Shown: one piece after another, positions 26,211 to 39,062 of the stretch
How the letters are laid out: the number at the start of each line of letters is the position of its first letter
Position numbering within the stretch: the stretch's first letter is position 1
Source of the DNA: a virus
Taxonomy: Duplodnaviria > Heunggongvirae > Uroviricota > Caudoviricetes
IMG/VR virus record: IMGVR_UViG_2698536355_000010
Strand: one strand, 5' to 3'
Length of the DNA stretch: 39,062 nucleotides
Made by a program: the position numbers and the translations under genes
Notes under the pieces: generated by a model
What the model saw: only the letters and a program-made list of their open reading frames with translations
Told to the model about the DNA's origin: nothing
The model's database searches: none

Positions 26211-26876
26211 TCAAAGCTCTGAGTCTACAGGCTCATGATAAAGGTTTACAGGGTAGTGTATAACCTCATAATTAAGTTGACTAACAGTGTGAGTATGTTG
26301 ACTGTAAAAAACCAATGGGTTTCTCTTACAAGGAGTTATCGAGATAGACTTACAAGCATGAATTCTTGGAGCCGATTTATCTAAATGAGCCTTCCACTTA
26401 GTCATCATTTCATTACATTTTTTATTACGCGTATATATAATTAACCCACCACTTGCACTGTCTACAGTACCAGTGCTATATCGCTCAGTGAGTTGTGCAT
26501 ACCCTTTAAATAAATAACCATATGAACCAGTGTGTTTTTTGGCCTCGCCATGCCAAGTAAATCTATTCAACTTTATTGTTATATCACAATGACCTCGTTG
26601 ATTATTTTCATGATATGCTTCAATTCCCATATCTTTATTTTTTATATTTGCCAGTAAAATTAAAGTAAGCTGATCTTCTGTTAAATCAAAATTCAATTTA
26701 TTTGAATTTTCCTCAATTGCCTGTACAGCAGAATCAAGCTCAATTCTTACAAACTGTTTGACGTTCTCATACGACTGGAGAGCAAACCTAACGCGAGTAA
26801 TAGAAGCATTGATACGCTGAAGAAAAATATCATTATCAATTTCAGCTAAACTCATTGGTGCAGACATTTTTAACAT
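26211..26876 (-). CDS. hypothetical protein, cargo operon gene 3 (possible PD-(D/E)xK-like motif)
   Basis: 221 aa; ATG overlaps upstream stop (ATGA); HCDITIK...(14)...GEAKK resembles a D...ExK motif; AT-rich. Confidence 0.6.
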   Translation of the reverse strand: MLKMSAPMSLAEIDNDIFLQRINASITRVRFALQSYENVKQFVRIELDSAVQAIEENSNKLNFDLTEDQLTLILLANIKNKDMGIEAYHENNQRGHCDITIKLNRFTWHGEAKKHTGSYGYLFKGYAQLTERYSTGTVDSASGGLIIYTRNKKCNEMMTKWKAHLDKSAPRIHACKSISITPCKRNPLVFYSQHTHTVSQLNYEVIHYPVNLYHEPVDSEL

Positions 26877-27310
26877 CAGACAATATCCTTTAATTTAGAT
26901 TCATCTAATGTAAAAAAAGGAAAGACGAAGGACTTATAGTCATACATAATCTCCCCTGTAAATGGGTTTACTAAAGATTGATTAATTTCAGCCTCTATAA
27001 CATCTTCTAACTCAAGCTCAATAGGATCATGAAAATCATCAATAAACCAATAATTGAGTTTTAAAAACTCAACCTTTGGACTACAAAGAATTTGTATAGC
27101 TGGGTACACAACCTGCTCATATGCTTCAGGTTGTATACATCCTTTATAACCATTAACGATACTAAATAAATCTTTATAACTCAGAGCTATATTAGGCGAT
27201 TTCTTTGCTCTCACACCAATTTCATCATACAAATAGCAAGCTAGCGCCCCTATATCAGGGCGCTCTGCACATATTTCTTTGATGATCTGGGGCATATCAC
27301 CATCCTTCAT
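26876..27310 (-). CDS. hypothetical acidic protein, cargo operon gene 2
   Basis: 144 aa from ATG 27310 with GGAG 6 nt upstream; tightly packed between genes 1 and 3. Confidence 0.55.
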   Translation of the reverse strand: MKDGDMPQIIKEICAERPDIGALACYLYDEIGVRAKKSPNIALSYKDLFSIVNGYKGCIQPEAYEQVVYPAIQILCSPKVEFLKLNYWFIDDFHDPIELELEDVIEAEINQSLVNPFTGEIMYDYKSFVFPFFTLDESKLKDIV

Positions 27311-27322
27311 TGCTGACTCCAA

Positions 27323-28429
27323 TTATAATATCAGCTTTGTGAGGGTTTCGAAATCATCTTTGGATATACATTTGCTTAATATAGCATAATTGACAGGAGA
27401 GCACCCACTACCACCTAAATGTCTGCGTAATGTTCCTGGAATGATAAGCTCTACACTATCCGCCAATTGCAATTTTGGATTATTCCTATCTACTCTAATT
27501 CCAATACGATATAAACCAATATTACCTACAGCTTTAATGCCCTCTTTATTAAACAGATCATCACGCAAGTCTTTCTTAGCCACATTTTTCTTTTCCTTAT
27601 GAGTGGTTCCCTCATAAGTTAAAAATGACAAATCGAACACCTTATAACTTAAACTTGAATATGGCATTACATTTTGCTTGAAAATTGGCTCAATTAATGG
27701 ATAAAAATCCTTTTCCGATGAATTAAATTGATAACCTGCGCAATTATATAACTCACGAATAAAATTCGTTTTCGCAAAAACGATATTATCACCAACAACA
27801 TTACCATTAGTATCAATTAATACATGGATTTTATTTGAAGCTGAATCTAATATACACACATCAAAACACTGACGTTTTTCTTTTCTCTTCGCAATGATTT
27901 CATCAAACTGTTTGTATGCTGCTAACTTTGACGGAGGGACTTTCTCTCTTACAACCAGCTCCCTGATAGATGAAAATACCAAAATAGACTGAGTATTTTG
28001 CTTAGAGTAATTAACAAGCTCAAGTTGATTTTTAATAGCATGCTGTAATTGAACATCATCAACAATCGTTTCGACTAATGATGTTGGTTGCTTCATCATA
28101 TTCCATTGGAGAGCATATCTATCATCAAGTAATTTAATTACTTGACTATCTACAGACAAACTAAATATTGCTTTTTCACCATAAACAACCTGCCCAAAGA
28201 CTAAATCATTTACACTTGCAATGATTTTGTCAAATTTTTGCCTATCTTTCTTTTTAAAATCAATGAGGCTTTCTAGTATTTTGTCGTTTGTTGCTTCACG
28301 CCCTCTACCTGTAGGTAGCCCTAAAGAAGCAATAATTGGTCTGGCGATATGCCACGTAAAACGTTCAGTTAAGGCTAAGATCGACTTTAACTCAAAGTCA
28401 GAAAGCACCACTGGGACACCACTTGTCAT
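27323..28429 (-). CDS. hypothetical protein, cargo operon gene 1
   Basis: 368 aa from ATG 28429 with AGGTG upstream; no nucleotide-binding or other motif recognised by eye; AT-rich. Confidence 0.6.
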   Translation of the reverse strand: MTSGVPVVLSDFELKSILALTERFTWHIARPIIASLGLPTGRGREATNDKILESLIDFKKKDRQKFDKIIASVNDLVFGQVVYGEKAIFSLSVDSQVIKLLDDRYALQWNMMKQPTSLVETIVDDVQLQHAIKNQLELVNYSKQNTQSILVFSSIRELVVREKVPPSKLAAYKQFDEIIAKRKEKRQCFDVCILDSASNKIHVLIDTNGNVVGDNIVFAKTNFIRELYNCAGYQFNSSEKDFYPLIEPIFKQNVMPYSSLSYKVFDLSFLTYEGTTHKEKKNVAKKDLRDDLFNKEGIKAVGNIGLYRIGIRVDRNNPKLQLADSVELIIPGTLRRHLGGSGCSPVNYAILSKCISKDDFETLTKLIL

Positions 28430-28589
28430 AACATGCACCTAGTCAACCCAAAAGCAATTGAAAATCGCTCTTGTCTTAATTTTTTCCATCAATATCTAAC
28501 AAATTACCTTAATGTTGAAAAAGTTTGCAAGCCATTTGCGTCTAAAAAGTGACTTGACTCAATGTGTTACAAAGCTTAGCGAGCGCGCG

Positions 28590-28608
28590 CTCGTATCCCC
28601 GCCACGCC
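28590..28608 (-). other. cos-like cohesive-end site
   Basis: Minus strand reads GGCGTGGCGGGGATACGAG followed by CGCGCGCT, closely resembling the remembered P2/186 cos (GGCG[A/T]GGCGGGGAAAGCA...GCGCGCT). Confidence 0.5.
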
Positions 28609-28647
28609 TGCCCGCTTTATGTAGTGGTTTTCATGCACCTGCATGAC

Positions 28648-28676
28648 ATAAGCAAAAGCCCGCCAGCTCTGGCGGG
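28648..28676 (-). terminator. rho-independent terminator downstream of HNH gene
   Basis: Stem gcccgccag/ctggcgggc (28657..28676) followed on minus strand by TTTTGCTT. Confidence 0.5.
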
Positions 28677-28790
28677 CATCAGCAAAAACGATCCTCAAAC
28701 GATCATGCGATTTCATGCGACATAGACATGCGTTGGCAAAAATGTACGAAATACTCAGCTTACAGGAAATGGTCTTTTTCCAACCTCCAG

Positions 28791-29510
28791 TTAGCCAAAG
28801 CAGAAACCAATATTGCAATTTGAAACTCCACAGTTGTGAAATTGATGTGGACCGACTCTTAGCTTGTGTTCGTCTCCTACAATCCGAGTCCCCTTAACCA
28901 ACATATCTAATCTTTCCACAATCAATCTTTCAGGCGCATCAACTTTAATAATTAAACGAGGACCTTTCCTTTTTTCTATAATAGTTATTCTAGGACCAAC
29001 AACCTGAACATCCCAATGCCTTGCACTACAAACCCACTCATTCTTAATTAATTCAAGATTAACAATACCTTGACTATCGTAAAATTTACCCGAAATAAGA
29101 AAAGCATTATTTTCTTTTTCAATGGTTAACAATGGCTCATTTTGAAACATTATTGGTACAGTACAGGATTCAAACGTCGCACCACCAAATATTATTGTTG
29201 GATGCCTATCAGAAAAGTCCAATATATCGGCCACATTCCCTTTTTGTAAGGCTGCAGGAGATTCCATTGCTTTAATTATTTTCTCTTTAGAGTAAAGACG
29301 TTTCGTTACTTTCGCATGGCACGTAGGACAAAGTAGTGCTATTGCATTTGGAGAGTGCTCCTTTGCATCAGCGTATGTGGGAATTACATGCTCATACTCA
29401 ACAATGGGAGAAGCACAAACAACGCAACCAAAGCCACAGCGCTGCCTTACCTCCAGTTTTACAGGTTCAGGAATTGTTCTAGATAACCCATGCTTGTTAA
29501 TAGTTGTCAT
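28791..29510 (-). CDS. HNH-endonuclease-domain protein
   Basis: N-terminal CGFGCVVC...EYEHVIP...N...LLCPTCH (HNH pattern); C-terminal 160 aa unassigned; AT-rich; AAGGTAAGG before ATG. Confidence 0.7.
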   Translation of the reverse strand: MTTINKHGLSRTIPEPVKLEVRQRCGFGCVVCASPIVEYEHVIPTYADAKEHSPNAIALLCPTCHAKVTKRLYSKEKIIKAMESPAALQKGNVADILDFSDRHPTIIFGGATFESCTVPIMFQNEPLLTIEKENNAFLISGKFYDSQGIVNLELIKNEWVCSARHWDVQVVGPRITIIEKRKGPRLIIKVDAPERLIVERLDMLVKGTRIVGDEHKLRVGPHQFHNCGVSNCNIGFCFG

Positions 29511-29632
29511 AACCTTACCTTAAAACTTCGAGAAACCTTTTATATATTGATACTATATCAACTAACGCCTCGCACAGCTCGTTGTTCAACCTTGCTGACG
29601 CCAGAAGCAAGTTCAGACGCCAGCAACGTTTC

Positions 29633-29866
29633 TTAATGCAGCCAGCTGTCGTCTTCCCACACCTTCTGCATAATTTTCATCACTTGCTTCCTTTCTTCGT
29701 CCAGTTGCAGTCCGGTCAGTTCCACACCGTTAGAGCTACCTTTGCGGATACGAATTACCGTTTTGGGATACAGGGGGCGCAGATTACGGTAAAGCTCGGA
29801 TTCAAGGGCGTCTAGGGTAGACTGGCTAATCTTCTGCTCTTTATCGATCATTATTTCAATGCGCAT
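29633..29866 (-). CDS. DinI-like protein
   Basis: MRIEIMIDKEQKISQSTLDALESELYRNL...WEDDSW resembles DinI (MRIEVTIAK...ALAGEL...TWESADDW); GAGGTGA 6 nt upstream of ATG 29866. Confidence 0.7.
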   Translation of the reverse strand: MRIEIMIDKEQKISQSTLDALESELYRNLRPLYPKTVIRIRKGSSNGVELTGLQLDEERKQVMKIMQKVWEDDSWLH

Positions 29867-29876
29867 AAAAGTCACC

Positions 29877-30065
29877 TCAACTGATGACATCCATTGAGCG
29901 GTTGTATTCGTGGGTTCTGATTTTTGCCATGAGTTCATCTGTTAGTTCAGAAACCCACTGCAAAGCCAGCCCCTTCTCTTCATCACTACACTCACTAGCC
30001 GCTACAAGCTTAAGAAAAAAATCAATGCGCTGGAGCTTCAAAGACTCCAAAAAATAGTCCTGCAT
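29877..30065 (-). CDS. small hypothetical protein, first gene of SOS-box operon
   Basis: 62 aa from ATG 30065 with AGGAGG 4 nt upstream; stop lies inside the dinI-like RBS. Confidence 0.5.
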   Translation of the reverse strand: MQDYFLESLKLQRIDFFLKLVAASECSDEEKGLALQWVSELTDELMAKIRTHEYNRSMDVIS

Positions 30066-30108
30066 CTTTCCTCCTATGACACCACAAGAAATACTGTATA
30101 CATAACCA

Positions 30109-30124
30109 CTGTTTATAATTACAG
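30109..30124 (-). promoter_or_regulatory. LexA (SOS) box
   Basis: aCTGTttataattACAGta, a CTGT-N8-ACAG palindrome with AT-rich spacer, about 45 bp upstream of the small gene start. Confidence 0.6.
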
Positions 30125-30218
30125 TATATAATAATCTTACTGATGTAAAACGTTTTTTTACGTTCATCAGCCTGATATGCCTGGTATTATTAAGAGCACG
30201 GATTGTTAACCCGCGTGA

Positions 30219-32633
30219 TTAATACAGGTTCCGCCACTTATCATCTTCCTGCAAACGCTGGTTCCGATAGAAGATACGCAGGCCTGCTCCTGACGGAATA
30301 CTGCCACCGCGAAGGAGCAAATCGACCTCTTTCTCGCTGCCATCAAATCCTCTGGACTTCAGTTCATAGACGAGCTGCTGACGCTGATACTCTGTAATTC
30401 GCTGTTTGTAGTCTTTACGCCGTTTCGGTTTAACCAGGCGTAATCTTGCTGCCAGTTCCCGGCGCTCTTTTTTGCTCATACTGTGCAGGTAATCGTGCAA
30501 CTCCTTGTCATCCATGCGGGTGATATCCGTTCTGGTATCCCCATCAGCTGATTTGTCTTTCCCTTGTTGGTTCAAATTTTCAGCAAGGGGACAGTTATTG
30601 CCACGAGTCCAAGGGGCGCAAGCGCCCTGGTCGGCTGCCGCCTCCTGAACGTCAACGGCTTTACGAACCATTTTCCACTTCACTGCATGAGTGCAGATCT
30701 TGCCCTCTGCAATGGGTGACCAGATGCCATAAATACGAATGCCGTGATCGCCATAGGCGGTCGGCTCTTCGTTGATTTCATAAGCGGTTCTGATGAGGTG
30801 ATATTTACGGGGAACCAGTACGCCGCCCTGCTTCATGATGTAGGTGGCAAAACAACCAGCATCAGCAGCAGCCAGAATGGCATCAAGGCGCGGGTTATCC
30901 AGTACCGGCGCACCTGCTTTTTTGTCACCCTGTTGCCTTGCCGCCTGACCAGCCAGCAAGCGAAGTTCACGGTAAGCCTGACGCCCCGGAATACCAAAGA
31001 AGCGGAATTGCTGAACACGATGCAGAGACGCCCAGGCATTCACGTATTCAGCGTTATCACGCAGAGATTTACCCGTTTCCTTGCTGATCTCGCCAGCCAG
31101 ACCACGACCGTCAATGTTCTTACTGATATATTTCGCGATGTAGCTTGTCGGCGTTCCTTTGCGCGGGTTAATCAACTCAGACTTAAAGCGCGGCCCAGTG
31201 TTATTGCCCAGCTCCTCGCGGTCTTCACGGATGGCAAACTTACGCAGTAATGCAGTGATGGCACGGCGGTCTTTTTTGCGCATGAAACACAACAGGTGCC
31301 AGTGAACTGTGCCATCATGATGCGGCTCAGCCACCCGCACGCCATACCAGCGCAACCCGGCTTTGTGCATCGCCTTACGAAATGCAGCAAACATGCCGAC
31401 CAGATAATCGCTGCTTTGTCTTACCGTCGCGTTTGTCCAGGTCGGGTTTGGTCTGCCGTTATTTAGCGTGGAATGGAAACGCGACGGACAGGTGATAGTG
31501 TAGAAAACGGCGCAGTCACCGCGCATTTCCGCGATAAGCTCCAGACCTTTAACACAGGCCATCATCTCATTGCGGCGATGCGCAGGGTTGCTGCTGCTGG
31601 CGTTTACCACATCCTCCATGTCCAGCGTGTCGCCGTCTTCGTTCACCAGTTCATGAGAACGGAAAAACTCCAGCGACTTACGGCGCTGCTCACGTTTATG
31701 CATCACGGCTTCATAGCTGACATAAGGAGATGCTTTTTTGCTGACCAGGCAAACAGCGCGCAACTGCTCTTCCCGCCATTCGCAACGCATCTTCCATAAT
31801 TTCCGATACCACCAGTCGGCGCACAACATACGCGCCAGCGAACCCGGAATGAGTTCATAGGGCACGGGTTTACGGCGGTTTCTTTTCCGGCGGAGTTGCT
31901 CAAACGCAGGTGGGATGACATCCAGACGCAGGGTTTCCGCTGCCACCTTTTCCCATGTCTTGCGGATTTCTTCTGGCTTAACGTCATCGGTGGCATACAA
32001 ATCACCACAAGCTGCATCAAGGCACATACTCATATGCGCAGCTACCAGGGTGGACAGGCGTTTCACCTGATCCTGACTCATTTCAGGCAGGATCAGCAGG
32101 CCGTCCAGCCCTTCATGGCTTGCCATAAAGCGAAAAGATGCAGATAGCTGACTGTCGCGTACATGCTCCAGTCGTTCCAGACATGGCTTAATCGTCTCAC
32201 GTAAATAGCGGGAATAAGCCTTTGGCCTGCCCAGGCTGCTGAAGTATTCAATACGTTGCATCAGCGGCTTGCTGATATGGGAAGGCTGGGCGTTGACGTC
32301 CGCCAGAATGACCATGTCTGAATTAAAACGCTGCTGCTCATGCGCCAGCTTTGCCCGGCTAATGAGCTTATCCTGCTCCATTTCGCGCTGGACAGGATCA
32401 CGTGATTCATTAAAGAAATAACGCTCCCAGACCTGATCACTCAGTGCCTCGCGGCGCAACTGTTCCTGCTCGTTATCGGCAGCGTACAGAGTGATCAGGT
32501 TTGAAAGCGTAGAAACCGGCGCAACTTCCGCCGGGTCCAGATAAGGGTTAATGGCCTTTTTCGGGCTGTTCCATGAGAATGCTGCGGCAGCCTCGTTAAA
32601 GCCGCAGCAGTTGTTCATATCGGCATGACTCAT
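30219..32633 (-). CDS. A: replication initiation endonuclease A (rolling-circle)
   Basis: 804-aa ORF, P2/186 gpA-like size and position. Confidence 0.85.
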
Positions 32634-35633: not shown

Positions 35634-36230
35634 ATGTCAACATCAAAGTACCCAAGTGAGATCAAAATAAATCCCAATAAAGGTGGTAAGGCTGCGATTG
35701 AGCGATTAGTCGAAGCCTATGGCTTTACGACACGACAGGCTTTAGCTGATCACTTGGAAGTATCAAAAAGCACACTAGCGAACAGGTATTTGCGGGATAC
35801 ATTTCCTGCTGACTGGATAATCCAATGTGCTCTTGAAACAGGAACCTCCCTCAAATGGTTAACTACCGGACAAGGCCTTAAGCAAAGCTCGCTGACAGCA
35901 GCTACAGAAGAGCTTGTTAAGTTTCGCCTTGCCGCAGGCAAAATGATTGAAGACGGTTCATATGTCTTCGATTCATCATTTCTTCCTGCAAACCTTTCAT
36001 CACCAATTGTTGTTCAGGATGGACTCGTCACATACATTTGTGATCAAAAATTTTCTGAAGTACTTGATGGAAACTGGTTAATCAATATCGACGGAACCTA
36101 TTCCATTCGAAAAATCACAAGGCTTCCTAAAGGAAGGATTAAAATTACAACAGCAGAGAATAGCTTTGAATGTGCATTTTCTGATATTGAAGTGGTTGCT
36201 TGTATAAGAAGTACAATAGTCTCGAATTAA
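35634..36230 (+). CDS. cI: CI immunity repressor (phage 186 type)
   Basis: 198-aa ORF with N-terminal HTH (TTRQALADHLEVSKSTLANR); divergent from apl. Confidence 0.8.
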   Translation: MSTSKYPSEIKINPNKGGKAAIERLVEAYGFTTRQALADHLEVSKSTLANRYLRDTFPADWIIQCALETGTSLKWLTTGQGLKQSSLTAATEELVKFRLAAGKMIEDGSYVFDSSFLPANLSSPIVVQDGLVTYICDQKFSEVLDGNWLINIDGTYSIRKITRLPKGRIKITTAENSFECAFSDIEVVACIRSTIVSN

Positions 36231-36250: not shown

Positions 36251-37927
36251 ATGAATTCATTTGCCATCGTTATACTCTTATTAGCATTTCTCGCCCCTGT
36301 TCTAGCTGTAATATTATTTAAACAAAGTAAAAAACACAAAGCGGCTATAGATAACCTGACAGCTAACAACATAGCCCTTTCTAACCAACTGATTGAAAAT
36401 CAAGAAAAACTAGCACAGACCGTACGAGAATTATCAGAGCTTGAAGGGCGAGCAGCACCATTGTGGCAATACGAAGAATTGCACAGCGCAGTAATGGATG
36501 CAGAGAATAAGATAAAAAATGCGGACTCAATAGCCAAGCAAAAAATAGATGAAGCCCAAATTAAGGCGGCTAAAACAGTAAACGAAGCAAATTATCAAGC
36601 TCAGATGACAATAAGCAACGCTAATAGCGAAGCTATAGCAATCACCAAAGACGCTCGCGATGCACGCCTGAAAGCCAAAGAACGTCTTGATAATGCTAAT
36701 AATAAAGCAAATGAGCTAATCTCAAATGCTAATGACAATGCAGTAAAAATTATTTCTGATGCAGAAGAAAGAGCAAAGGAGATTGCTGGTTCAGCATATG
36801 AAGCTAAAGAGTTTGCAGAAAAATATGAAGCAGTTGCAAAATCAATGAAAAATAAAATTGAAGGTTATGGTGATGAATGGATCATCCCTAACCGTAGTGT
36901 ACTTGATGAGCTGGCAGAAAATTATGAATTTACAGATGCAGGCAAGGAATTACAAAAAGCCAGAGAGTTAACCAAATCATTAATAAAAACTAATAAAGCT
37001 GCTTCGTGTGATTATGTTGAGCAAAACAGGCGTAATACTGCCATAAACTTTGTTTTGGATGCCTTCAATGGAAGAGTTGACAGTATTTTATCAAAAGTCA
37101 AACACAACAATTTTGGAAAACTTTCCCAAGAAATAAAAGATGCATTTCAACTAGTAAATTACAATGGCTCTGCCTTTAGGTCCGCAAAAATAAGTGACAT
37201 CTATCTTCAGGCAAGACTCAACGAGCTAAAATGGGGTGTAGCAGTTAATGAAATTATGCTCGAAGAAAAAGAAGAGCAAAGAAGGATTAAAGAACAGCTT
37301 CGTGAAGAGGAAAGAGCTCGTAGAGAATATGAAAAAGCGATAAAAGAAGCTGAAAAAGAAGAAAAAGCTATTCAGCAAGCTATAAATAAAGCAACGAAAG
37401 AACTTATGCTTGCAAATGAAGAACAACGCTTAGCTTTAGAGCAAAAAATAGCTGAACTACAGTTAAAATATGAAGAAGCTGAAGCTAAAAATCAACGAGC
37501 TATTTCTATGGCTCAACAAACCAGATCAGGCCACGTCTATATCATTAGTAATATTGGTTCATTTGGCGAAGATGTATATAAAATTGGAATGACACGCCGC
37601 CTTGAACCACTTGATCGTGTTCGTGAACTCGGAGATGCTAGTGTTCCTTTTTCGTTCGATGTTCATGCGATGATTTATAGTGATGATGCACCATCATTAG
37701 AAAACCATCTGCATAAAGTTTTCAACGAAAAGCAGGTCAATAAAATTAACTCACGAAAAGAGTTTTTTAACGTAAATTTAAAAGAAATCAAATCAGTTAT
37801 TGAAGACATGAACATCAACGCCCACTGGACAATGTTTGCAGAGGCGAAAGAATATAGAGAGTCTCTAGCTATTGAGCAGGAGCGCAAAGCAGCCACTTCC
37901 GCCAACGATGAACTACATGTTGCTTAG
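36251..37927 (+). CDS. membrane-anchored coiled-coil protein with C-terminal T5orf172/GIY-YIG-like domain
   Basis: N-terminal TM helix (FAIVILLLAFLAPVLAVILF), roughly 400 aa A/E/K/N-rich coiled coil, C-terminus VYIISNIGSFGEDVYKIGMTRR...PFSFDV...LENHLHKVF...EFF; AT-rich; AGGA before ATG. Confidence 0.75.
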   Translation: MNSFAIVILLLAFLAPVLAVILFKQSKKHKAAIDNLTANNIALSNQLIENQEKLAQTVRELSELEGRAAPLWQYEELHSAVMDAENKIKNADSIAKQKIDEAQIKAAKTVNEANYQAQMTISNANSEAIAITKDARDARLKAKERLDNANNKANELISNANDNAVKIISDAEERAKEIAGSAYEAKEFAEKYEAVAKSMKNKIEGYGDEWIIPNRSVLDELAENYEFTDAGKELQKARELTKSLIKTNKAASCDYVEQNRRNTAINFVLDAFNGRVDSILSKVKHNNFGKLSQEIKDAFQLVNYNGSAFRSAKISDIYLQARLNELKWGVAVNEIMLEEKEEQRRIKEQLREEERARREYEKAIKEAEKEEKAIQQAINKATKELMLANEEQRLALEQKIAELQLKYEEAEAKNQRAISMAQQTRSGHVYIISNIGSFGEDVYKIGMTRRLEPLDRVRELGDASVPFSFDVHAMIYSDDAPSLENHLHKVFNEKQVNKINSRKEFFNVNLKEIKSVIEDMNINAHWTMFAEAKEYRESLAIEQERKAATSANDELHVA

Positions 37928-37985
37928 CAATGTATGTTTCATAGTAATCACACATTGATTACTGGTTACATATACAGTTAAATTT

Positions 37986-38009
37986 AGCCCTCTGATATGA
38001 GGGCTTTTT
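37986..38009 (+). terminator. hairpin terminator abutting the int start
   Basis: agccctc-tgatat-gagggct followed by tttt, ending 1 nt before the int ATG; the stem contains the only SD-like sequence (GAGGG) for int. Confidence 0.5.
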
Positions 38010-39062
38010 ATGGCAGTACGAAAACTAACCACAGGGAAATGGCTTTGCGAATGTTACCCCGCCGGACGAAGTGGGCGTCGTGTGCGTAAACAATTCGCTA
38101 CCAAAGGCGAAGCACTGGCTTTTGAGCGCCACACGATGGAAGAAACCGAAGCAAAGCCCTGGCTGGGTGAATCAGTGGATCGTCGAACACTGAAAGACGT
38201 GGTTGAGCTATGGTTCAAACTACATGGTAAATCTCTGACAGCTGGGCAGCATGTCTATGACAAATTGCTGTTGATGGTTGACGCTCTGGGCAATCCTCTT
38301 GCAACCGATCTCACCTCTAAAATGTTTGCCCACTATCGAGATAAACGCCTGACAGGCGAGATCTACTTCAGCGAGAAATGGAAGAAAGGAGCAAGCCCGG
38401 TCACCATTAACCTGGAGCAAAGCTATCTAAGTAGTGTTTTTAGCGAACTATCCCGTCTGGGCGAATGGTCGTATCCGAACCCACTGGAGAACATGCGAAA
38501 ATTCACCATCGCAGAAAAAGAGATGGCATGGCTTACCCATGAGCAGATTGTTGAATTGCTGGCTGATTGCAAACGTCAGGACCCAATTCTGGCACTGGTA
38601 GTTAAGATATGCTTAAGCACAGGCGCACGCTGGCGTGAAGCCGTAAATCTTACCCGCTCACAGGTGACCAAATACCGAATTACCTTTGTCAGAACGAAGG
38701 GGAAGAAAAACAGAAGCATCCCTATCAGTAAAGAGCTTTACGAAGAGATCATGGCGCTTGATGGGTTCAATTTCTTCACAGACTGCTATTTTCAATTTTT
38801 ATCCGTGATGGAAAAAACGTCTATCGTGCTCCCTCGCGGTCAACTCACACACGTTCTGCGCCATACGTTTGCGGCGCACTTCATGATGTCGGGTGGAAAC
38901 ATTCTGGCCTTACAAAAAATTCTCGGACACCACGATATAAAAATGACTATGCGTTACGCACATCTGGCACCGGATCATCTAGAAACGGCGCTCCGTTTCA
39001 ATCCTCTGGCAACGCTGCCAAGTGGCGACAAAGTGGCGGCAGCGGTTGGCATTACCCCGTAA
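38010..39062 (+). CDS. int: tyrosine integrase
   Basis: 350 aa; LSTGARWREA, HVLRHTFA and MRYAHL blocks match P2-family Int; stop at the window edge. Confidence 0.9.
   Translation: MAVRKLTTGKWLCECYPAGRSGRRVRKQFATKGEALAFERHTMEETEAKPWLGESVDRRTLKDVVELWFKLHGKSLTAGQHVYDKLLLMVDALGNPLATDLTSKMFAHYRDKRLTGEIYFSEKWKKGASPVTINLEQSYLSSVFSELSRLGEWSYPNPLENMRKFTIAEKEMAWLTHEQIVELLADCKRQDPILALVVKICLSTGARWREAVNLTRSQVTKYRITFVRTKGKKNRSIPISKELYEEIMALDGFNFFTDCYFQFLSVMEKTSIVLPRGQLTHVLRHTFAAHFMMSGGNILALQKILGHHDIKMTMRYAHLAPDHLETALRFNPLATLPSGDKVAAAVGITP

Follow-up and report, generated by a model that had tools for sequence, protein, structure and literature searches.

A split tumA-tumB operon as the probable SOS induction module of a Fels-2-like prophage

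Genes and features of the locus

Within the IMG/VR virus record IMGVR_UViG_2698536355_000010, a 39,062-nucleotide stretch of DNA (hereafter the window) that holds a complete Fels-2-like (Peduoviridae) prophage of the P2/186 type, we characterised a compact module encoded on the minus strand, directly 3' of the gpA replicase gene. Read along that strand, it consists of a LexA operator, an open reading frame (ORF) of 62 amino acids (aa), hereafter tumA, and a 77-aa gene of the DinI family, hereafter tumB (Table 1). These elements very probably constitute the SOS induction module of the prophage, in a form where the functions of phage 186 Tum are split between two cistrons.

The gpA-type gene lies relative to the module as gene A does in phages 186, PSP3, Fels-2 and DuoHS, and this synteny bears out the 186-like location after A proposed by an initial annotation made from the sequence alone. 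The strong ribosome-binding site (RBS) of the 62-aa ORF and the DinI-like gene with its own RBS, both described there, were recovered, the tumB RBS (GAGGTGA) overlapping the tumA stop codon; the spacings had been slightly overestimated, the first LexA box lying where announced, at 41 nt rather than about 45 bp from the tumA start codon, and the two genes being separated by 10 nt rather than 11 bp. A mechanical ORF list contains longer forms of both genes (96 aa and 101 aa) that cross the operator or reach into tumA; the short, RBS-preceded forms retained here are those that are conserved and annotated in RefSeq.

Table 1. Features of the tumA-tumB module and of its surroundings, with positions in the window
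Feature	Position	Strand	Details
LexA box 1 (strong), TACTGTAATTATAAACAGTG	30107-30126	-	perfect CTGT-N8-ACAG
LexA box 2 (weak left half), CAGTGGTTATGTATACAGTA	30092-30111	-	matrix score 16.0
Proposed sigma-70 promoter of the SOS operon	30121-30149	-	TTTACA 30149-30144, 17-nt spacer, TACTGT 30126-30121
tumA-type gene, 62 aa (stop codon included)	29877-30065	-	ATG 30065, TGA 29877, AGGAGG RBS 30075-30070
tumB-type gene, 77 aa, DinI family (stop codon included)	29633-29866	-	ATG 29866, TAA 29633, RBS GAGGTGA 29878-29872
gpA-type replication endonuclease, ending the early operon and anchoring the module on its upstream side	30219-32633	-	Pfam Phage_GPA, E 1.4e-127
Stem-loop just 3' of the A stop codon	30139-30171	-	RNA fold -12 kcal/mol, z -3.8, 0/200 shuffles equally stable
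Stable stem-loop just 3' of tumB, without U-run	29588-29630	-	RNA fold -23.6 kcal/mol, z -3.0
186-type CI immunity repressor, presumed TumA target	35634-36230	+	Pfam Phage_CI_repr 8.2e-32, Phage_CI_C 5.6e-28
Cargo, four co-oriented genes between tumB and the portal gene	26211-29510	-	gpA-gpQ hotspot position

Operator and promoter architecture

The SOS box that the initial annotation had called near-consensus proved to be a perfect CTGT-N8-ACAG, and the only one in the window, where 0.37 would be expected per shuffled window. It also matches the extended ACTGT-W8-ACAGT pattern with 0 mismatches, for an expectation of 0.16 when up to 2 mismatches are allowed. Scored with a LexA position-weight matrix built from E. 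coli sites, which is approximate and serves for ranking only, box 1 reached 22.0, while the best scores of shuffled windows averaged 11.9 and peaked at 17.0. The initial annotation had overlooked a second box, offset by 15 nt and overlapping the first by 5 nt, and the same double box at the same offset is found in DuoHS and Fels-2.

The predicted LexA operator overlaps the proposed promoter directly 5' of the genes, its -10 hexamer TACTGT being the first six bases of box 1, and both this architecture and the hexamer itself are those of the annotated promoter p95 of 186, suggesting that the SOS operon is probably driven from this site. The 3' arm of the stem-loop that follows the A stop codon includes the proposed -35; this structure may terminate or insulate the early operon. 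At the other end of the module, the stem-loop following tumB occupies the position of the partial terminator t95a of 186, and a scan for a canonical intrinsic terminator after tumB found none.

Used as a query, the Fels-2 version of the 46-nt operator region matched about 1200 plasmids, mostly small and mobilizable. We inspected the context of three of these matches: one lies on a 6647-bp plasmid, taken to be ColE1-like from its size and aligned promoter, with no annotated gene downstream; another lies upstream of pesticin on a Yersinia pestis plasmid, and the third upstream of a colicin-like tRNase bacteriocin (klebicin) in Klebsiella. The three plasmids, the window and Fels-2 share the pattern TGTA..ATA.AA.CAGTGGTT.T.T.TACAGTATT, and the window operator presents the organization of a colicin-type double operator, with two 20-nt boxes at a 15-nt offset, a shared CAGTG junction and the strong box 1 on the promoter-proximal side. 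Over about 35-43 nt, it is 86-92% identical to the colicin E1-type, pesticin and klebicin operators, which show the same 15-nt offset and share ACAGTGG / CCAGTGG. By contrast, the boxes of the colicin promoters lie, from our reading of the alignment, downstream of a consensus TTGACA-type promoter, and they drive a toxin gene rather than a phage switch. A literal text search of papers for the colicin operator string gave no match. At colicin-type box pairs, two LexA dimers bind cooperatively, resulting in tight repression and late induction. If this behaviour applies here, the double operator would restrict the commitment of the prophage to lysis to conditions of sustained damage.

Homology of the two small proteins

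The alignment of both proteins with 186 Tum that the initial annotation had put forward as a check was direct for the DinI-like protein, and was obtained through profiles, in place of BLASTP, for the 62-aa protein. TumB matches the Pfam DinI family (PF06183) over its full length (E 6.6e-23, 81.3 bits against a cut-off of 24.2) and the solved structure of E. coli DinI, 1GHH (E 2.7e-6, residues 1-75), including the acidic C-terminal W-E-D-D-S-W segment, and it shares 41% identity with residues 71-145 of 186 Tum (E 3e-24). Judging from family membership, TumB would bind RecA filaments and modulate their coprotease activity.

TumA belongs to no Pfam family and found no relative in a PDB profile search; RefSeq and PHROGs label it 'hypothetical protein' or 'unknown function'. 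An exhaustive search of 1.84 billion representative proteins returned only 66 relatives, nearly all of 50-130 aa, and a profile built from an alignment of 28 diverse members matched 186 Tum with a probability of 94.5% in hhalign (E 7.6e-8), residues 5-44 aligning on residues 5-44. Conversely, 186 Tum matches phrog_698, the family of the window ORF (2.7e-5, residues 7-44), phrog_8554 is matched by both proteins, and the window ORF matches phrog_1993, the family of PSP3 TumA (0.0022). Two independent profile methods thus support TumA as a remote homologue of the N-terminal, antirepressor half of Tum. AlphaFold2 predicts a two-helix hairpin, with helices at residues 2-23 and 28-61 and a mean predicted local distance difference test (pLDDT) score of 88. 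We propose that TumA is an antirepressor of CI. Its function is documented in a close relative, as detailed below, yet databases label the protein hypothetical, an annotation that can now be corrected.

TumA is 98-100% identical among phages whose CI is only 40-55% identical to that of the window (DuoHS 55%, Cartapus 44.9%, 4LV2017 44.0%, Fels-2 41.5%). It may recognise a conserved surface of CI, in which case it could cross-induce heteroimmune relatives; free reassortment of modules is a possible alternative explanation for an invariant TumA facing diverged repressors.

A hairpin with the stem GTCATC-loop-GGTGAC (29871-29888, minus strand) spans the tumA stop codon and the tumB RBS, and its stem is identical in DuoHS and Fels-2, where the loop varies. 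Translational coupling through a hairpin hiding the tumB RBS was considered and is not claimed, its stability not exceeding that of shuffled sequences (z -1.2 to -1.8).

Conservation of the module

We surveyed 160 IMG/VR loci, comprising 80 close relatives with an identical TumA and 80 members of a distant TumA clade, whose proteins are about 55-94% identical to a representative (P0147) that is itself 42% identical to the window protein. All 80 close loci carry a DinI-like gene 9-10 nt downstream of tumA, and 79 of them have box 1 located 41 nt upstream of the tumA start; the exception (L087) retains an intact box 1, separated from tumA by an inserted element. Since the whole intergenic region is about 95% conserved among close relatives, leaving little information in per-column variation, the argument for a LexA-box footprint rests on distant relatives. 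In the distant clade, a strong LexA box precedes tumA by 15-36 nt in 78 of the 80 loci, usually about 118 nt after gene A, the two exceptions being a locus with a group II intron-like element 5' of tumA (L022) and a contig without upstream sequence (L029). In none of these 80 loci does a DinI-like gene follow tumA within 600 nt, and Cronobacter phage ESSI-2 and Escherichia phage ESSI2_ev015 likewise carry the box and tumA without the DinI gene. Because distant relatives keep the box and tumA in this way, the LexA box and tumA form the conserved unit, to which the DinI part is accessory: 186 has it fused, PSP3 and Fels-2 have it as a separate gene, and the distant relatives lack it.

The module is present in 1125 of 5426 complete E. 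coli genomes (about one in five), and 56 records of Klebsiella, Escherichia, Salmonella and Yersinia phages contain it. It would set the moment at which a very common prophage family of E. coli, Salmonella and Klebsiella exits lysogeny after DNA damage, including damage caused by quinolones.

In the interrupted close locus (IMG/VR UViG_2634166506_000002, positions 551-2455 of L087), an insert of about 1.9 kb lies between box 1 and box 2 on the tumA strand. It starts with GTGCGCC and encodes a 495-aa reverse-transcriptase-like protein, so that, from this ORF and its start sequence, it looks like a candidate group II intron. The sequence of its 3' end is also found upstream of tumA in L022, the distant-clade locus with the intron-like element. 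Transcription from the proposed promoter, if correctly placed, would include the insert in the leader.

Comparison with characterised systems

The module adds another instance of a system that has been described and tested genetically, and whose split form is already known. At the same position, the PSP3 record (NC_005340) annotates a tumA ('similar to 5' end 186 tum; UV induction of prophage') and a tumB ('similar to dinI and 3' end of 186 tum'), the Fels-2 pair corresponds to STM2728 and STM2726.1, and Lemire et al. (2011) described tum as split in two by a stop codon in both phages (PMC3121763). As relayed by the same article, antirepressor activity was attributed to the upstream gene of PSP3 in a personal communication of G.E. 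Christie, reported via Bunny et al. (2002), and, within what that article cites, binding to CI is known for 186 Tum only (Shearwin et al. 1998). PMC12626290 cites Bunny et al. (2002) for the observation that surviving lexA sulA mutants of Salmonella LT2 had all lost the Fels-2 prophage.

The firmest evidence concerns DuoHS, a prophage of E. coli HS, in which an in-frame Δtum or lexA(Ind-) each abolishes lysis and virion formation after mitomycin C (PMC12055606). The tum gene deleted in that study bears the locus tag ECHS_RS04495, and the deletion primers given in its supplement, NHR24 and NHR28, have perfect matches in the window (30063-30085 and 29857-29879). ECHS_RS04495 is a 189-bp gene located between the replicase and the DinI-like gene, its product is identical to the window TumA at 61 of 62 positions, and the DinI-like protein of DuoHS is 100% identical to the window TumB. 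Because the deletion leaves the DinI gene and its RBS intact, the small protein itself is required for DuoHS induction, and the deletion test of induction suggested by the initial annotation has a published outcome, loss of induction, for a 98%-identical ortholog.

PSP3, Fels-2 and DuoHS share with the window the succession of gene A, LexA operator, a 60-62-aa gene and a 77-aa DinI-like gene. The TumA proteins of Fels-2 and DuoHS are 98% identical to that of the window and both phages share the double operator, whereas their CI, as given above, and the cargo following tumB differ. PSP3 differs in its TumA, which comes from another family (phrog_1993 against phrog_698 in the window), and in having just one consensus box, nearer to the start. 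Phage 186 resembles the window in the LexA box lying over a TACTGT -10 after gene A, in the family of its CI, and in the homology of the N-terminal antirepressor part and the DinI-like part of Tum to TumA and TumB, respectively. It differs in that both parts are fused in a 146-aa Tum, with internal starts giving DinI-like fragments, and in its single box instead of an overlapping pair, and the likeness of TumA is seen by profiles only; its SOS operon is p95-tum-orf97. A comparable logic has been described outside the P2-like phages (PMC3121763): the Gifsy operons, with a dinI homologue followed by gfoA or gftA, produce a LexA-controlled small antirepressor acting on a non-cleavable repressor, and AntC of N15 is a LexA-controlled antirepressor of the same type. 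In these lambdoid systems, by contrast, the dinI homologue comes first, and the antirepressor and repressor families are unrelated to those of the window.

Proposed function and alternative explanations

The locus combines every sequence-level feature of a Tum module, namely the operator, the homology to the N-terminal part of Tum, a DinI-like second product, and a location after A in a prophage with a 186-type CI, and the initial proposal of a Tum-like, LexA-controlled module split in two cistrons is thus upheld. On the basis of its anatomy, its homologies and the joint conservation of tumA and its LexA box, all observed here, together with the requirement of both tumA and a cleavable LexA for mitomycin C induction on the 98%-identical ortholog (PMC12055606), we propose the following mechanism. 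In an undamaged cell, LexA would occupy the two overlapping SOS boxes, covering the -10 and the start region, and keep the operon silent. DNA damage would activate RecA and lead to the self-cleavage of LexA, upon which the promoter would fire and the two small proteins would be made. TumA would then bind the 186-type CI and block its binding to the operator, as 186 Tum does, and this inactivation of CI without cleavage would release the early lytic promoter and induce the prophage. TumB would in parallel act on RecA filaments and tune the SOS signal. For this prophage, we infer LexA binding to these boxes, the exact promoter, the binding of TumA to this CI and the role of TumB.

Several observations weigh against this interpretation. 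BLASTP gave no alignment between the 62-aa protein and 186 Tum, leaving profiles as the basis of their link, and the TumA profile matches PSP3 TumA weakly (hhalign probability 8.6%). On the operator side, box 2 taken alone scores within the range of the best chance hits, below the maximum of the shuffled windows, and the tum promoter escaped a scan for consensus promoters, TACTGT being a poor match to the -10 consensus. Finally, the neutralisation of the window CI by TumA is an extrapolation from 186 and from DuoHS, whose CI is the 55%-identical one.

We weighed these points together with three other explanations of the locus. The box could be a chance palindrome in an AT-rich intergenic region, upstream of an operon that LexA does not regulate, and the bare CTGT-N8-ACAG motif does occur at least once in 30 of 100 shuffled windows; however, the full 20-mer scores far above all shuffles, its position is kept in relatives with diverged flanks and only 40-50% protein identity as well as in 186 and PSP3, the double box is near-identical to colicin and pesticin operators, and lexA(Ind-) blocks DuoHS induction, leaving this explanation a nearly negligible probability. 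We also consider it very improbable that the LexA box controls nothing but a DinI-type SOS modulator acquired as a moron, with the 62-aa ORF as an unrelated gene or leader peptide and induction proceeding through CI cleavage or another route. Such a scenario would fit a small protein that lacks a Pfam family, a PDB relative and any BLASTP likeness to Tum, and that is annotated as hypothetical nearly everywhere, but it conflicts with its profile homology to the N-terminal half of Tum, with the abolition of DuoHS induction by a deletion sparing the DinI gene and its RBS, and with the 80 distant loci where the box is kept with tumA and the DinI-like gene is missing from the 600 nt downstream.

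A third scenario, unlikely although clearly less so than the two others, is that the SOS promoter mainly serves the cargo (29510-26211) by read-through, tumA and tumB being the first genes of a longer damage-induced operon that would also arm accessory or defence genes; it would add to the antirepressor function, not replace it. All four cargo genes are co-oriented with tumAB, the only structure after tumB is the stem-loop devoid of U-run, and in the annotated SOS operon of 186, p95 transcription passes the partial terminator t95a into orf97. Moreover, the gpA-gpQ interval is known as a defence hotspot of P2-like phages (PMC9122126), and prophages that are nearly identical elsewhere differ in their cargo. 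Against read-through, transcripts may be stopped or processed in the 122-nt gap, with its hairpin of -23.6 kcal/mol, defence genes normally have promoters of their own that are active in the lysogen, and PADLOC models matched none of the four cargo proteins. In the P2 defence-hotspot literature that we checked, including PMC9122126, the terms tum, SOS, LexA and DinI are absent. The split antirepressor module thus remains our preferred reading of tumAB, whether or not its transcripts extend further.

Genome setting and cargo

The prophage is inverted in the window (1-39062) relative to its orientation in E. coli HS. ybjL (935-2620) is followed by the genes for tail, capsid and packaging, which extend to about 26147; the minus strand carries the early operon, and cI and int lie on the plus strand at the right end. 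The nearest phage record is vB_EcoM-813R9, with a 99.5% identical CI; the literature found on this phage is a prophage-mining preprint without induction data.

The first cargo gene (28791-29510) encodes a 239-aa HNH-like protein (Pfam HNH, 2.4e-5), and the other cargo proteins, of 371, 148 and 221 aa, have no Pfam or PADLOC match. Cargo content differs in DuoHS, Fels-2 and vB_EcoM-813R9, and the window cargo may represent an undescribed system. A perfect palindrome (TTGATA-TAG-TATCAA, 29530-29545, minus strand) in the gap that separates tumB from the HNH-like gene, some 20-35 nt upstream of where this gene starts, could be an operator or a part of the cargo's own promoter.

A LexA-like box between cI and int

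The top-scoring LexA-like box of the window lies outside the module: TACTGGTTACATATACAGTT, at 37960-37979 on the plus strand, reaches a matrix score of 23.6 and is located 30 nt upstream of the int start codon (38010), within an element spanning 37955-38012. The box forms the spacer of a promoter-like TTGATT-17-TTAAAT, whose equivalent in DuoHS is TTGACA-16-TAAAAT (L003 18305-18360). A strong terminator hairpin (37986-38005, -13.3 kcal/mol, z -4.1), with a U-run ending at the int ATG, follows and would end the insert found between cI and int, the int-side promoter-like site being read as nested in its 5' arm; transcription initiated about 7 nt past the -10 would have its start inside this arm and could escape termination. 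The element is present at loci L172, L173 and L174; phages of E. coli, Klebsiella (4LV2017, KP12) and Yersinia (vB_YenM_31.17) retain it although their flanks have diverged. Fels-2 and 186, in which cI directly adjoins int, lack it. Our literature search found no paper describing this element, which may be an SOS-controlled int promoter.

Taken jointly, these observations raise the tentative and rather doubtful possibility that LexA controls this prophage family at two nodes, tumAB and int, with an antirepressor acting across immunity groups. If this were true, the colicin-type double operator on tumAB would set a high and late induction threshold, int would have gained its own LexA-box promoter where a defence insert separates it from cI, with Int being made only after damage, and the near-invariant TumA would let the SOS signal of one prophage induce heteroimmune relatives in the same cell; read-through may in addition extend SOS control to the neighbouring defence hotspot. 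The double operator resembling those of colicins, the promoter-like LexA-box site before int and the conserved antirepressor facing diverged repressors are here testable extensions rather than discoveries.

In the window, the insert between cI and int is a 558-aa gene (36251-37927, plus strand) whose product matches the PADLOC model PD-Lambda-1 (E 2.4e-120) and carries the Pfam domains DUF4041 and T5orf172/MUG113; it is a defence-type moron in a secondary, cI-int hotspot. The phages bearing the int-side element all carry different inserts between cI and int, with other genes occupying this spot in DuoHS, 4LV2017 and vB_YenM_31.17.

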